Part shown: positions 43,767 to 52,700 of the stretch, piece after piece
Numbering within the stretch: position 1 is the stretch's first letter
How the letters are laid out: the number at the start of each line of letters is the position of its first letter
Source of the DNA: an uncultured delta proteobacterium
GTDB lineage: Bacteria > Desulfobacterota > Zymogenia > Zymogenales > Zymogenaceae
Assembly: GCA_963735595.1 (NCBI GenBank)
Contig: CAVTLK010000001.1
Location: 704,001-768,000 of the forward strand
Direction: 5' to 3'
Length of the DNA stretch: 64,000 nucleotides
Position numbers: made by a program

Positions 43767-46700
43767 TGTCCTGAGCCAGGATCAAACTCTCCAGTTTAAT
43801 TGGTTCAAAGGCGATAAATCGCCTTACGCTTCAAAGAAAAAAACGTTAGTGCGCCACAAGCTTCCCATCCCCACTATTCAGTTCTCAAAGACCCGAAAGA
43901 AAGCCACATCAGGCTTCTCTTTTTCACAATTTTTCGATTATAGAGATGCGCGATTCCTTTGTCAAGAGAAAAATCGCCTTCATTCACTTTATTTGCTTTT
44001 TTTGTGCCGTTTATCTCACTTCCAATCCCACCGTTACCCTTCCCTCACTTACTGCGTGCTCCCGGCACGTTGCCGCCCGATGAGGAAGGGGAATAGCGCA
44101 GAAACCCGCTGAACTCCGTGCGAAACTTCTCATCTTTCGGCACATTTTTAAGAATATCGCTTTATCCTGAGAATGTCAAGGAAAATATGAGAATATCGCC
44201 TCCTCAGGCCCATTCTGACGCCGTTGGGTCAGTTAAATATTCTTTGTAATTACGTATTGTTACGGATTACGGTCCGTCCGATAGCACCGCTATTCCGACA
44301 CATGCTGCGCCTAACTCTGAGGCGGAGGCGGGACAGCCGGACGTCCCCCCCTGTGGCGTTCCTATACTCCCATATTCCCACAGGGACACGCCTATGAAAC
44401 CGTCTTCGCAGGAATACACCGATAGTACGGTGATTTCCTGTTCGTTCTTCCGGCCCACCGCCGACCGTCGCACGCCGACTCACCCCGTCGAACCGTGTCC
44501 GTATCACCTCATAGTAATGCGAGTCATATTTTTCGTTGTAATAGTGGACTATTGTTGATATTATAAAAAAATACCTTTTGCATCGGGGCGTCATGAAACG
44601 AAACCGGGTCGTCATCACTGGAATGGGTACCGTAAACGCCATTGCGGGTAATACCGACCAATACGCGGCCGCCCTGCAGGACGGAATATGCGGGATCGGC
44701 CCAATCACCCTATTTGATACATCGGCCCAACGGACGAAAACCGGGGGTGAGGTCAGAGATTTTCCATCCGGAAAAGCTGATTCCGTCGAGCTTCTCGCGC
44801 AAGCGTGCGTCCCGTTCCGACCTCCTGGCCATGGCGGCCGCGGTCCAGGCGCTCGAACAGGCGGGGCTCCTTCCATTTCCCCAATCCCTGGCCGATACGA
44901 CCGGGATATCCATCGGCGGAGGCGCCGGGGGAATGCTCGAGGGCGAAGAGTTCTATGAGGCATACCTGAAAAAGGGAAAGGACAGGGCCCGCTTTTCACG
45001 GCTTGCATCGCTCTTTTGCGCGTCGTCTGCCGACCATATCGCGTCAAGCCTCGGCCTCTTCGGGCCGAAGACGACCTTTATGACGGCCTGCTCCTCGGGC
45101 GCTACCGCCATCGGGTTTGCCGCCGACCAGATCAGGTATGGGAGGGCCGAAACCATGATCGCCGGGGGGGCCGAGCCCCTCTCACGGATCATTTACGCCG
45201 CCTTCAACTCGCTGCGTTCGGTCGATCCCGAATACTGCAAGCCTTTCGACAAGAACCGGCAGGGCCTCTCGCTCGGCGAGGGCGCGGGGATATTTATCCT
45301 CGAATCCCTCGACCATGCATCGGCCCGGGGGACAAAGATACTCGGTGAGGTCCTCGGATACGGGGTGACCTGTGATTCGCACCACATGACCGCCCCCGAT
45401 CCCGAGGCCTCCGGGTCGATACGGGCCATGCAGGCGGCGCTTGCCGACGCCGGGGCCGTCAAGGAGCAGATAGAGTATATAAATGCCCACGGCACCGCCA
45501 CCCCGGCCAACGACGTGGCCGAGACCCAGGGCATCAAGGAACTCTTCCAAAAGCGGGCCTATGACGTACCGGTGTCGTCGACCAAGTCGATGATCGCCCA
45601 CACCCTGGGGGCCGCCGGGGCGCTGGAAGGGATGGCCTGCATGCTCGCGATACTAAACGGCTTTATCCCGCCGACCGTTCACCTCTCCGAGCCGGACCCG
45701 GATTGCGATCTCGACTATGTCCCCGGCCGGTCGAGAAAGAAGGAGCTGTCCATCGTCCTTTCCAACTCGTTTGCCTTCGGCGGCAACAACACCTCCGTCA
45801 TCTACGGAAGATACACCCAGAAGGGGATCGTTCATGAGTAAGCGCGTGGTTATTACCGGGGCGGGGGTAGTCTCGTGTCTCGGCGTGGGGATACGGCCAG
45901 TTCACGGACCGACTGTTCGCGGGAGAATCGGGCGCGCGGGAGATCACCTCGTTCGATACGTCGGGCCTCCCGTCGCACCTGGGCGCGCTGGTTGCCGATT
46001 TCAACCCGAAGGATATCATCGATCCAAAGAACCTCCGCAAGATGGATATTCTCTCCCGCACCGCTGTCGCCGCCACGAGGCTCGCCGCCGATGACGCCCG
46101 ACTCGTTATCGACCAGGCCAACCGGGACCGGATCGGCATCATCATGGGTACGGCTTTCGGCTCTACCGATATCTCCATCATGTTCGCCCGCACCCTCTAC
46201 ACGGAAGGACCGACGCTGTTCAATCCGCTCCATGTCCCCAATACCGTCATGAACGCGCCGGCCGGCCACTCCTCCATCGAGCTCGGCTTCCGCGGGTTCA
46301 ACTCAACCATCAACCACAAGGAATCCTCCGCCGAAACGGCGATCGGCTACGCGTTCGATCAAATCACGAAAGGAACGGCAGACGCGATCTTTTCGGGCGG
46401 CGCCGATGTGATATCTCCCCTCCTCTTCGAGGTGCTGACGCGGTTCGGGACCCTCTCCCGGGCCGACGAGCGGCCGGAAGGGGCGCGGCCCTTTGACGTG
46501 AGCCGAAACGGCGCCGTGGCCGGGGAAGGGGCCGGGGTTATCTGCCTCGAATCGCTCGAGCATGCCGAACGGCGCGGGGCCGAAATCTACGCCGAGGTAT
46601 CCGGCTTCGGCATGAGTTCGTCGCCTGCCCCGCCGACCGACTACCCGACCGATCCGAAGGGATACGTCCTGGCAATAACGCGCGCCCTGGATTCGGCCGG

Positions 46701-49700: not shown

Positions 49701-52700
49701 CTACCAGGAGGAAAAGGGCGTCCGCTTTGCGCAGGGATACGGCATGACCGAGGCGCTGCAGATCTCGGCGCTCTCGTCTAGACGATTCGATCACCAAGGC
49801 CGGCTCCGTGGGAAAGGAGAACTTCCACGTGATGCTCAGGGTCGTCGACGACGAGGACAGCGACGCGAGAGACGGTAAGACCGGCGAGATCGTCATCAAG
49901 GGGCCGACGATCTTTTCGAGGCTACTGGGAAAAGCCCGCCGAGACCGAGGCGGCCATGCGCGGCGGCTGGTTTCACACCGGGGACATGGCCCGGCGAGAC
50001 GCCGACGGCTTCCTGTTCCTCGAGGGCAGAAAGAAAGAGCTGATCATCATGCAACGGGATCAACATCTACCCGGCGGAGGTGGAAAAGGCGATCCAGTCG
50101 ATTATCGAGGTCAAGGAGTCGGCGGCCGTGGGGCTGCCCGATGCCCGCCGGGGCGAGGTGGTGGCCGCGTTCGTCTCCCTCAAGCAGCCCAACACGCTCA
50201 CCGAGCAGCAGCTCATCGAGCGGCTCACGGGCAAGATCGCCGATTTCAAGCTGCCGCGGAAGGTCTTTTTCGTCGACGATTTCCCCCGCAACACCCAGGG
50301 GAAGATATTGAAGAAAGAACTCAAGCGCCAGATCGAGGCGTTGTAGGATAAAATGGGCATGACATGTCATGCCCCTACGGGTTCTTCATCGCAGGCGGTG
50401 AAAGCCCTTTTTTTTTCCACGTCCGAACTTCTTTCTCCACGTAGGGGCACCACATGTGGTGCCCGTCTTTTTAGTCATATCCGCCAACTGCGTAGGGTGC
50501 CACTGACAAGCATCAGCTTGTCAGTGCGAGGGTGGGATACCCCCCTACGGACAACGGCGTCAGGCGACCTACCCAACACACAGTCCGTCATTGCGAGGAG
50601 GCGTTAGCCGACGCGGCAATCTCAACTGCCCCACGCAGTGGCCGTTTCCTTCCTTGAATGCCGTCATTGCGAGCGTAGCGAAGCAATCCCCCGACTGTCA
50701 CCGCAGAATCCCACTTAAAACCCTACCACCCCTATCAACAATCACGATGTAACCGGTAAACGGTTTTCGTTGCAATCTCGACAACGTATCGTATAATAAT
50801 CGCACTCTGGCTGCCGGCCCTCCCATACCCTCGTATCCCTCTTCCAGAAGGCGCGCCGGCCTTCGATCTAAACGAAAATGCGACCCTATCGGTATCAGGG
50901 GGTTATATTATGCGCATCGAATGCCCGAAATGCAAATACGCCGGCAATATAGCCGATCAGCTAGTTCCCGAAGAAGGCCGTAGTGTCACTTGTCCAAAAT
51001 GTAAAGAAAAGTTCACGGTCCAGCCCGCCAAATCGGCACCGGAGATCCAAGAAGTTAGTATCCCACCCAACACGACATTCAAAGAACAGCTAATGGAAGG
51101 CTATCCTAAACAGGATAAGGTGTCTGAAGAAAGCTCCGTACCCTCATTGAGTACTGCTCCAAGGTATAAATATAAGGTCGAGTATATATACGAAGGACTA
51201 ATTTTCAAAACACTTAACATAAACAAGATTCAAAATAACCTGAATGCGGAAGCGAAAGATGGCTGGGTCCTTGATAGGCTTGCCATAGTACCACAACGTC
51301 GGTTTCTCCTTTTCATACGAAACGCCATGATCTTTATTTTTCGACAGCAAATATGCTGAAGTAGATAATTGCAGTAAAAACGGAAATAGAGAAAATTAAA
51401 TGAAGTATTCGACAGTCACTTCGAAAGGCAGGCTAAGGAAATCTCTTCTTCCCGCTGTATATCTAGACGCATCAGTAATAATTGACTACTGGATTGCAGA
51501 TGGTATTGAACACCCTGAAAGCGATTCCGAGTACCAGAACGCCATGCTTCAGAATGAGGTCCATAGGTTAGTCAGGGAAATAGTTGATTCAGAGAAACGT
51601 ATTAGAAAGGTAGCCCATATAAGAAGTAATTACTTAGACGACAGATCTAAAATATCCTTTGTTACAAGCGAATTAGCAGTCTGGGAATTGCAGGATTGGC
51701 TAGCGGAGTCGGGTTTTAGAAGAATAGCTACTGAAGCGTGCGGCTCATCTGTTACAAAGAAAATGGGTAAAAAAGAAATCGGTAAGTCTCTTAGGAAAGC
51801 TCTTGACCTTTATGAAAAGGAAGAAGAACACCATAATCCCGAAGAAGGTGTAACTGCATTAACAATGCTAATGATGGATATGTGGACGAACCTTAGCTAT
51901 GCTCAGGCTCACGGGTTAAGGGGTATAACTGTTGTGGACATAGTTAATTTCAATCTCCCCCCCAAGCGGTCAATAGAGATAAAGCTGTTTCCCAATCCGC
52001 TTACACTTTCATATCTTCAAATAGGAGCCGCGGATATCTTTCACCTTATGTTTGCACATCACCTCGGGTGTTCCTATTTTGCTACTTTTGATAAGGGTTT
52101 AGAAGTTGCCAAGGGACAATTAGAAGAAGCAGGAATAACACTCCTAACAACTCCTGAACAGATAAATAAGGTTATGTAATCCAGGTTTGTTAATGTTCTA
52201 GGTATTCGAGGAAATCAAGACCCAACAGAAACCATAACCGAGGTGGAGTTAGATAGTTTCTCCCCCCTTACCCCATCCCTCCCTTTATCATCCGCACCTG
52301 CGCCTTCAGGTTGAGGAGATAGGCCTCCTCCGGCTGCTTACCCTGCCGGGCCGTGAGATATTCCTCTTTCTTTACCCGCTCGATCACCCGCCCCTCGTCC
52401 ATCCCCTCTTCCGCGAGGTAGCGCTCGATCTTATCTTTGAGCTCCGCCGCGTCCCTGAGGGCCGCCGCGATGAGCCGCTCTACCTCGTCCCCGTAGGCCT
52501 GCGCGTGGTGGCCGGTCAGCACGCGCCGCGGCCGCGCCGCAGCGACCTTGTTTATGGACGCAACGTAGTCCTCGTAGCTCGTCAGGAACTCCGGCCCCAC
52601 GTAGAGCTCGTCGCCGGGGACGATGCCGATAGCCTCTCCGGTCAGCACGATCTCGTCCGGACCCACGAGGTAGCTCATGCTGTCCTGCGTGTGGCCGGGG

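Follow-up and report, generated by a model that had tools for sequence, protein, structure and literature searches.

A ketosynthase/chain-length-factor pair in the fabF-less Zymogenia is the probable core of a dispersed aryl-polyene/ladderane-type lipid pathway

The closest described systems are the anammox heterodimer of ladderane Cluster I and the aryl-polyene (Ape) clusters. According to a preprint, the anammox heterodimer amxFabF2/amxFabFmut prefers its own ACP and C6–C8 probes and shows no elongation in vitro (bioRxiv 2026.05.19.726425), and anammox bacteria retain a canonical FabF (bioRxiv 10.64898/2026.05.19.726425). For Ape systems, a glycine-rich motif of ApeE is reported to be needed for KS-CLF binding (PMC12624758). 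Among Deltaproteobacteria, Desulfotalea, Geobacter and Pelobacter have Kuenenia-like accessory FASII clusters, with no ladderanes found (Rattray et al. 2009, PMC2649909).

The window, a 64,000-nucleotide stretch from an uncultured member of the Zymogenia (Desulfobacterota), encodes four neighboring genes on its forward strand. An active ketosynthase (KS; 44593..45841) has the Cys-His-His triad and the motifs TACSS, HGTAT and HTLG; its true ATG lies upstream of position 44747, where an earlier note on this DNA had placed the start. Overlapping its stop by 8 bp is the start of a catalytically dead KS paralog of chain-length-factor (CLF) type (45834..47050, end approximate), which reads HKESS and carries Glu, Ser-or-Thr and Glu at the Cys, His and His places. 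Two AMP-forming acyl ligases follow (47262..48794 and 48808..50346), the second a tandem duplicate of the first that is also found in G003, G004, G005, G006, G007 and G009. Orthologs of the first ligase, at 60–63% identity, adjoin the pair in other Desulfobacterota, and the nearest solved structures (with a G006 paralog as query) are feruloyl-CoA synthetase and FadD13; this enzyme likely loads a starter acid.

All four genes are interrupted by frameshifts, near 44760 in the KS, near 45890 and 46975 in the CLF, near 47420 and 48450 in the first ligase and at several places in the second. Contigs of close relatives differ from the window in this region by single-base gaps and the G003, G006 and G007 orthologs of the split genes are intact, so that the breaks are probably sequencing or assembly errors; the KS, CLF and both ligases are real genes. 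The KS is 79–84% identical to its whole G003 ortholog, and the AlphaFold model of the G006 CLF ortholog (pLDDT 90.6) has the alpha/beta KS layout. Parts of the KS and CLF genes are represented in RNA contigs from one public run, which is not proof of transcription, and none of the public sequencing runs contained half of the stretch. A plasmid search with the KS returned matches of 40–43% identity only.

FabF or FabB is regarded as indispensable in Gram-negative cells making lipid A. FabF was found in 280 of 301 genomes of the phylum; in contrast, all 10 Zymogenia genomes lack fabF after acpP in the fab operon. As the earlier note had claimed, acpP runs straight into rpiB, with a spacing of 11 bp in the genome carrying the window (G000) and of 10–11 bp in eight of the nine loci measured, and in G008 and G004 the region is likewise too short for fabF. 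PlsX, also said to be missing, was detected in none of the 10 genomes. FabH is indeed absent from the operon but not from the class, since a strong FabH (361 bits against a cut-off of 292) lies elsewhere in nine of 10 genomes. The PF02801 domain matches in eight of 10 genomes, in the pattern previously described. No elongating KS of FabB, Ape, PKS or Pfa type beyond the pair was found in G000 with the PF00109 profile or by tblastn with FabF, FabB, ApeO, ApeR and cluster KS queries, and its only two KS-family genes are the active KS and the dead partner. That these two form the sole FabB/F-family pair of the class is thereby supported.

The exceptions listed by the earlier note fared differently. 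G003 does have the pair, but its supposed ordinary FabF sits on a 2.3-kb contig (acpP-fabF-rpiB-glyA) that repeats G003's own operon, and this sequence clusters with a Smithellaceae genome (UFBoot 98; SH-aLRT 99); we therefore rejected it as contamination. The missing pair of G001 was likewise rejected as a true loss and is attributed to an assembly gap, because ribF and recG, the pair's neighbors in other genomes, are missing too. Absence from G002 looks real. In the main texts searched, neither a loss of FabF nor this KS/CLF pair has been described for the class.

By score, tree position and place relative to acpP, neither subunit belongs to FabF (KAS II). Whole G006 orthologs of KS and CLF reach 436 and 322 bits, both below the TIGR03150 cut-off of 494 as had been stated, and the KS falls in its own clade of Desulfobacterota KS, separate from FabF (SH-aLRT 100) and grouping weakly with ApeO (SH-aLRT 85). 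An active KS adjoining a paralog without the Cys-His-His triad is instead the arrangement of highly reducing type II KS/CLF heterodimers. PDB entry 9s5h could not be reproduced as the top match of the CLF, which was B. subtilis FabF with the G006 ortholog as query and 1j3n with the window fragment. Chain C of 9s5h ranked third with a 48-sequence CLF profile, where it was the best-scoring dead subunit, at 334 bits versus 189 and 187 for the solved CLFs of aromatic PKSs. We agree with the earlier note that 9s5h is very probably the anammox amxFabF2/amxFabFmut heterodimer, as is 9s5i; at the Cys site chain C carries Val, which matches the description of amxFabFmut, and the main text of the paper gives no PDB id.

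Like the anammox pair, the Zymogenia genes combine a full-length FabF-like active KS with a full-length dead paralog. Both share a PNTV-NAPA helix motif and have Ala where the tunnel of FabF has I108 (amx Ala110), and among solved KS/CLF pairs the anammox one scores best for each of the two subunits. The gene order differs, with CLF first in anammox bacteria and KS first in the class, and the CLF has Glu at the Cys site instead of Val/Thr. At the place of the tunnel-narrowing anammox Phe135, all 48 CLFs compared have Val, a substitution that may allow longer chains. Unlike anammox bacteria, the class has an ApeE-like ACP and no canonical FabF, and its B12 radical SAM enzyme falls short of the ladderane model TIGR04072 (61 bits versus 360). 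The TIGR04072 enzyme and the desaturase-like gene of Cluster I have no counterparts next to the pair; G002 retains one desaturase-like gene.

The pathway of the pair is spread over at least five loci in the class genomes. In G000 these include fabG2-acp2-fabZ2 (contig C2, 123.6–125.2 kb), an LpxL-like acyltransferase with the B12 radical SAM gene (C2, 704–706 kb), and a group of GT2, second radical SAM, deacetylase and LolA-like carrier genes (C5, 500.6–505.6 kb). A further gene, fabZ1, lies between lpxD and lpxA in the housekeeping lpx operon, and FabZ2 is His-less. Each class genome has two ACPs, AcpP and ACP2, of which the latter has the glycine-rich motif, finds ApeE (9LS6) as its best PDB match (E 5.6e-18; next 1.4e-10) and scores 88 against a cut-off of 70 with the PRK09184 model. 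A metagenome scan for further fabG2 loci yielded a single close relative among 80, and its acp2-fabZ2 was intact.

Together these loci resemble the apeA-R clusters of E. coli CFT073, X. doucetiae and A. baumannii and the flexirubin-type clusters, with KS-CLF, AMP ligase, ApeE-like starter ACP, FabG (KR), two dehydratases, GT2, LpxL-type acyltransferase, LolA-like carriers and an MMPL transporter (seen in G000), and the deacetylase is as in the Persicobacter cluster. Unlike Ape, the class has a full-length CLF rather than the short ApeC type, two ligases, two radical SAM enzymes and dispersed genes. The Ape set of ApeO/ApeC plus ApeR (homodimer) ketosynthases and the second ACP ApeF was not recovered in the class, and an aromatic amino-acid lyase was found in none of the 10 genomes. 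The Kuenenia-like FASII clusters are also deltaproteobacterial and share divergent paralogs of FabF as well as radical SAM and phytoene-dehydrogenase-like genes (PMC2649909), a likeness at the level of gene families; those clusters are compact and accessory, whereas in the class the pathway is broken up and the hosts have no FabF.

Outside the class, KS and CLF are adjacent in 69 of 77 related loci, and in 60 of the 77 an accessory gene of Ape type lies no more than 9 kb away. Accessory genes at these loci include aromatic amino-acid lyase (44), radical SAM (34), thioesterase (27) and GT2 (24), and relatives' clusters contain phytoene-desaturase-like and B12 radical SAM genes. Descent of the pair from aryl-polyene/ladderane-type clusters of Desulfobacterota is supported, in line with the ladderane-like source that the earlier note proposed.

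Co-loss evidence that the scattered genes work together comes from one genome, G002 (94% complete, 2.9 Mb, 290 contigs), which lacks all five pathway loci, each kept by eight or nine of the other nine genomes. The pair and ligases are missing from the whole genome and from both known sites, acp2-fabZ2 is deleted behind a FabG2 remnant that reads YxxxM instead of the catalytic YxxxK, fabZ1 is deleted between lpxD and lpxA, the LpxL-like acyltransferase and B12 radical SAM genes are deleted between a regulator and alaC, and GT2, radical SAM, deacetylase and LolA genes are deleted behind secF. This last locus had been predicted from the presence profile ahead of its search. A thioesterase near the acyltransferase locus, and a lipoprotein and a 150-aa gene of the GT2 locus, were dropped as pathway genes, all three being still present in G002. 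The deepest branch in the class tree as drawn, G006, has the pathway, and G002 retains relics of it; the placement of G002 itself has support of 37 and 57 only.

The missing genes could sit in unassembled DNA of this fragmented genome, and 42 of 325 collinear G000/G002 junctions (~1 in 8) differ in gene content, some of them frameshift artefacts. We nonetheless consider it very improbable that the genes are unrelated and that G002 lacks them through chance loss or incomplete assembly: in four of the five cases the deletion falls within an assembled contig, the FabG2 remnant no longer has its catalytic Lys, these gene families also occur together in Ape and flexirubin-type clusters, and G002 housekeeping genes were found on 11 of 11 expected contigs.

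On balance, the four genes of the window are probably the core, responsible for loading the starter and extending the chain, of an outer-membrane lipid pathway of aryl-polyene/ladderane type, in a class without fabF that probably scavenges its ordinary fatty acids. For each step, the genomes supply the gene and its motif, from which we infer the chemistry. The ligases would activate an aromatic or fatty starter acid, and KS and dead partner would form a heterodimer, by analogy with the anammox and Ape pairs, extending the starter with malonyl units on the ApeE-like ACP. FabG2 would reduce the chain, His-less FabZ2 likely pairs with FabZ1 for dehydration, tailoring of the chain likely falls to the B12 radical SAM enzyme, and its transfer to a lipid acceptor likely to the LpxL-like acyltransferase. 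GT2, the second radical SAM enzyme, deacetylase and LolA-like carriers likely make the head group and export the product.

The earlier note instead proposed that the pair is the primary elongase of membrane fatty acids, probably extending scavenged acids loaded by the ligases. On such a reading the pair would, perhaps besides its other role, lengthen chains primed by FabH or a ligase and carried on AcpP, together with FabG, FabZ1 and FabK, and G002 would have become auxotrophic afterwards. The pair is the only FabB/F-family KS, ACC, FabD, FabH, FabG, a FabK-like enzyme, FabZ1 and AcpP are kept, and a secondary lipid synthase can reportedly stand in for FASII genes (PMC8174602). The Val in place of Phe135 and the Phe87 of FabH also fit, as does the loss of fabZ1 from its housekeeping position, which makes a side role of the pair on AcpP possible. 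We nevertheless regard bulk elongation as unlikely. Although the pair is absent, G002 retains AccA/D, FabD, FabG, AcpP, FabK-like, FabH, LpxA/C/D and PlsB, so that acyl supply in this genome does not depend on the pair, and among the genes lost along with it are some for export and tailoring that play no part in bulk synthesis. The FabZ1 loss is accounted for by the His-less FabZ2, with which FabZ1 would go to the special pathway; related heterodimers reportedly favor their own ACP (bioRxiv 2026.05.19.726425; PMC12624758); and all five tested carriers outside the class have FabF. A special lipid combined with auxotrophy, which the note had raised as an alternative, fits better because the pair travels with a separate ACP and a dispersed set of genes for lipid tailoring and export, and G002 has lost this entire set while keeping housekeeping genes. 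Similarly doubtful is a mixed scenario, in which KS/CLF and the FabZ1/FabZ2 dehydratase pair replace FabF for housekeeping chains besides the special lipid in nine of 10 genomes, while the G002 lineage, with no condensing enzyme but FabH and no dehydratase, makes an outer membrane containing lipid A.

PlsB accepts acyl-CoA, and the many acyl-CoA ligases together with PlsB would use scavenged acyl-CoA for phospholipids; G000 has 26 ligase matches and 22 acyl-CoA dehydrogenase matches, and tblastn in this genome found no plsX, plsY, lipA, lipB, bioB, bioF or bioD, nor FadL with the E. coli query. For lipid A, ACC, FabD, FabH, FabG and AcpP would yield 3-hydroxyacyl-ACP for LpxA/LpxD in one condensation step. 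KAS III enzymes condensing C8–C10 acyl-CoA exist, and in the PA3286/FabW-type shunt a FabH-family enzyme feeds scavenged medium-chain acyl-CoA into acyl-ACP for lipopolysaccharide, which offers a precedent (PMC4549310). Hosts of that shunt keep FabB/F, unlike the class, whose FabH is an ordinary TIGR00747 member (141 bits versus 304 for the PA3286 type). It has Phe at the position of E. coli F87, which presumably limits chain length, and a long-chain role for this FabH is thus putative. It seems improbable that bulk chains are made de novo for PlsB along a CoA-dependent route through thiolases, either reverse beta-oxidation or a thiolase/DUF35 complex of archaeal type, with the pair serving the special lipid only. 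The window does contain, clustered at 21.5–30.5 kb, genes for a thiolase, an HMGCS-like/DUF35 fusion, a MaoC pair, an SDR and an acyl-CoA dehydrogenase, the HMGCS-like gene occurs in nine of 10 genomes including G002, and such a route is reported to exist in archaea (bioRxiv 2024.07.05.601840). Against this, lipid or steroid breakdown is the usual role of these gene families.

These results describe a class of environmental bacteria with 3–4 Mb genomes and neither FabF nor FabB, in which bulk acyl chains are likely scavenged, FabH and FabG likely supply lipid A chains, and the pair likely elongates a ligase-loaded starter on a second ACP for a special envelope lipid. G002 goes further, lacking every FabB/F-family gene and FabZ yet retaining ACC, FabH, AcpP and Lpx genes, a gene content that predicts a cut-down fatty-acid synthase for lipid A only. 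Its joint losses amount to an inventory of genes for a lipid pathway that is widespread in Desulfobacterota. The KS/CLF of this pathway is more closely related to the anammox ladderane pair than any other, and cluster-finding tools would miss the pathway because its genes are in pieces. The predicted need for supplied fatty acids may aid culturing of the class.

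The genome under study (G000; 3.63 Mb in five contigs, 93% complete) carries four frameshifted plus-strand genes in the window (C1:704001–768000): an active ketosynthase (KS; 44593–45841), a catalytically dead KS paralog (the partner, or CLF; 45834–~47050), and two AMP-forming ligases (47262–48794 and 48808–50346). Contigs of relatives show single-base gaps against the window, and uninterrupted versions of the genes are present in three other Zymogenia genomes (G003, G006, G007), so we read the frameshifts as probable assembly errors. Alignment to E. coli FabF shows C163, H303, H340, and the gate Phe conserved in the KS; in the partner the three catalytic places read Glu, Ser/Thr, and Glu. 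Of 48 partner homologs, 37 carry Glu at the Cys site, eight Ala, and three Gly. An apparent rRNA operon, recognised from sequence just upstream of the KS gene (~38200–43900, minus strand), may be a cause of the region's absence in G001 and of a contig end in G003. Elsewhere in the window, a secreted-looking protein (13037–13603) is built from a ~19-aa unit (SDEPGTIIDIKSF...) repeated roughly eight times.

PF02801 matches occur in eight of ten class genomes, in agreement with the earlier note, and its report that fabF is missing from the fab operon was borne out. The operon runs rpmF-(fabK)-fabD-fabG-acpP-rpiB-glyA, with an acpP-rpiB gap of 10–11 bp in eight of nine measured loci and too little space for fabF in G004 and G008. 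The "ordinary FabF" credited to G003 lies on a contaminant contig (L009, G003:C22:1-2346): reading acpP-fabF-rpiB-glyA, it duplicates the operon of G003, and its closest grouping is with a genome of the Smithellaceae. This leaves no genuine FabF in any of the ten genomes. Across the phylum, sampled evenly, 280/301 genomes passed the FabF cut-off. AccA and LpxA are retained in all ten class genomes (nine LpxA copies exceed the cut-off; the G001 copy is split), FabH in nine, and LpxC and PlsB in 5/5 tested each. PlsX was found in none of the ten, and tblastn with E. coli proteins detected acpS in G000 and none of plsY, lipA, lipB, bioB, bioF, or bioD. The genus of L071 (G007:C81) and L082 (G009:C21) has no fabK-like gene in the fab operon and carries 7–9 FabK-like paralogs per genome, none above cut-off.

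Elsewhere in the phylum, genomes in which no FabF exceeds the cut-off include those of L312 (G047:C30), L313 (G228:C46), and L314–L315 (G206:C6). Genomes of family f34 seemingly carry only ApeO-like or related KS genes and G206 carries two odd KS; FabF may have been lost independently in them. The closed 2.1-Mb genome G114 (G114:C1; L276, L280, L285) gave no type II KS matches at E 1e-60; its KS domains are confined to multidomain proteins of 1,581–3,636 aa, and it likely uses type I or Pfa-type synthesis in place of FabF.

Screening a single genome from each species gave 151 confirmed relatives; the 80 best were retained, and three class members among them were removed. Among the resulting 77 loci, many of which stop at contig edges, KS and CLF are adjacent in 69, with an aromatic amino-acid lyase in 44, ligase in 43, B12 radical SAM in 34, thioesterase in 27, GT2 in 24, desaturase-like gene in 19, LolA in 14, and MMPL in 11. 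This gene set is that of aryl-polyene lipid clusters as described in available portions of PMC8253772 and bioRxiv 2020.12.19.423268, and the extra genes match those noted by Rattray et al. in Kuenenia and Desulfotalea (PMC2649909, in part). All five tested carriers outside the class also have FabF, so the pair normally serves an accessory function. KS and CLF each form a clade distinct from FabF (SH-aLRT 100 and 99) in a tree of 109 rows; this tree, built without anammox sequences, links the KS clade to ApeO weakly (SH-aLRT 85), at a point where long branches come together. Desulfosarcina, Smithellaceae, and Desulfobacterales genomes (L256–L266, G010–G014) have another pair of neighbouring KS genes, each of which has Cys (PQGACASG, TITACATG).

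The partner had been said to have 9s5h as its top PDB hit; a single-sequence search instead puts plain FabFs first, and a profile search places 9s5h chain C third, far above the remaining solved CLFs. Chain C has Val at the Cys site and shares a PNTV-NAPA motif with the partner, features that fit the amxFabFmut of bioRxiv 2026.05.19.726425, whose main text gives no PDB id. In the available part of that source, the anammox heterodimer is reported to decarboxylate and to form acetoacetyl-ACP, with no elongation found, and to prefer C6–C8 probes and its own ACP; the authors present its dead subunit as the first CLF to belong to a fatty-acid pathway.

The remaining pathway genes are dispersed over G000: (a) fabG2-acp2-fabZ2 (C2:123.6–125.2 kb); (b) an LpxL-like acyltransferase and B12 radical SAM (C2:704–706 kb); (c) GT2, radical SAM/SPASM, lipoprotein, deacetylase, and LolA (C5:500.6–505.6 kb); and (d) MMPL and B12 radical SAM, seen in G000 (C1:364–368 kb). 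The best PDB match of ACP2 is 9LS6 (ApeE). FabZ2 lacks the catalytic His in 5/5 aligned sequences and FabZ1, from the lpx operon, has His and Glu in 6/6, resembling the ApeI/ApeP pair, which forms a heterodimer.

G002 is a natural knockout of this pathway. The earlier statement that G001 and G002 have no KS holds for G002, where both sites occupied by the pair elsewhere are assembled and empty; G001 also misses ribF and recG and retains loci (a)–(c) and FabZ1, so its gap is one of assembly. G002 lacks both ligases (best match 38% vs 60% for orthologs), acp2-fabZ2 is deleted behind a FabG2 whose catalytic Lys is Met, and lpxD runs directly into lpxA with fabZ gone. The locus (b) acyltransferase is in 9/10 class genomes and its radical SAM in 4/5 tested, G002 being the exception each time; within the 919 kb of G002 examined, regulator-alaC spacing at that site is 202 bp. 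Joint loss of locus (c) was predicted before the search, which then matched 9/10 genomes, all except G002, where the site reads secF-lipoprotein-150aa gene-phospholipase and GT2, radical SAM, deacetylase, and LolA are gone. As a control, extra G000 DNA lies at 42/325 collinear junctions (764 G002 genes), a count that includes some frameshift artefacts and possible G000 gains; at this upper rate the four in-place losses have a rough joint probability of ~3 in 10,000, and we regard coincidence as very improbable. The class tree does not fix the position of G002; its relics argue for loss. The purE-purH interval, which contains purD in G000, has no purD in G002 (L493, G002:C16:~6400); the gene may lie elsewhere.

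From gene presence, motifs, linkage, and co-loss, we infer that the ligases, nearest to feruloyl-CoA synthetase and FadD13, would put on a starter; no aromatic amino-acid lyase was found in the ten class genomes. KS/CLF would extend it on ACP2 with malonyl units from ACC and FabD, FabG2 would reduce, and FabZ1/FabZ2 would dehydrate. An unsaturated chain is plausible because no reductase is linked. Radical SAM enzymes may tailor the chain, the LpxL-like enzyme would pass it to a glycosylated lipid, and MMPL and LolA-like proteins would export it.

The earlier note had the pair making bulk membrane fatty acids. The pair is the only candidate elongating KS, FabZ1 was lost together with it in G002, its CLF may have a wider tunnel than the anammox CLF, and a secondary synthase covering for FASII has precedent (PMC8174602, in part); with an accessory role usual elsewhere and the pathway lost in G002, we still consider this unlikely. 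Bulk chains might also come from a CoA-dependent thiolase route, of a kind that exists in archaea (bioRxiv 2024.07.05.601840). The candidate cluster at 21.5–30.5 kb (21470–30501) comprises a thiolase and HMG-CoA-synthase-like/DUF35 fusion (minus strand), followed by a HadA/HadB-like MaoC pair and by genes for an SDR, an acyl-CoA dehydrogenase, and an enoyl-CoA hydratase; G006 has the same order and the HMGCS-like gene is in 9/10 class genomes. The cluster is either catabolic or a CoA-dependent synthesis route, and we hold bulk supply from it to be less probable still. Judging by ORF sequences, a second set lies at 15252–18521, where two small DUF35-like proteins flank a further two thiolases.

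With the pair assigned to the accessory pathway, ordinary lipids would be built from external acyl-CoA through PlsB; G000 has 26 ligase and 22 dehydrogenase matches. Counting against this plan, one query found no FadL. The 3-hydroxy chains of lipid A could arise from a single FabH condensation plus FabG, for which PA3286/FabW is a precedent (PMC4549310, in part). FabH here keeps Phe87 and is not PA3286-like, which counts against such a shunt, although it has Trp in place of Leu189 and a longer loop. KS/CLF pairs and Ape-type pathways are already known. Our literature search, which included part of the class paper (bioRxiv 2021.03.22.436540), turned up no account of FabF being lost throughout the class, or of the present pathway in this class. 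G002 is an example of a cell organised with neither FabB/F nor FabZ.
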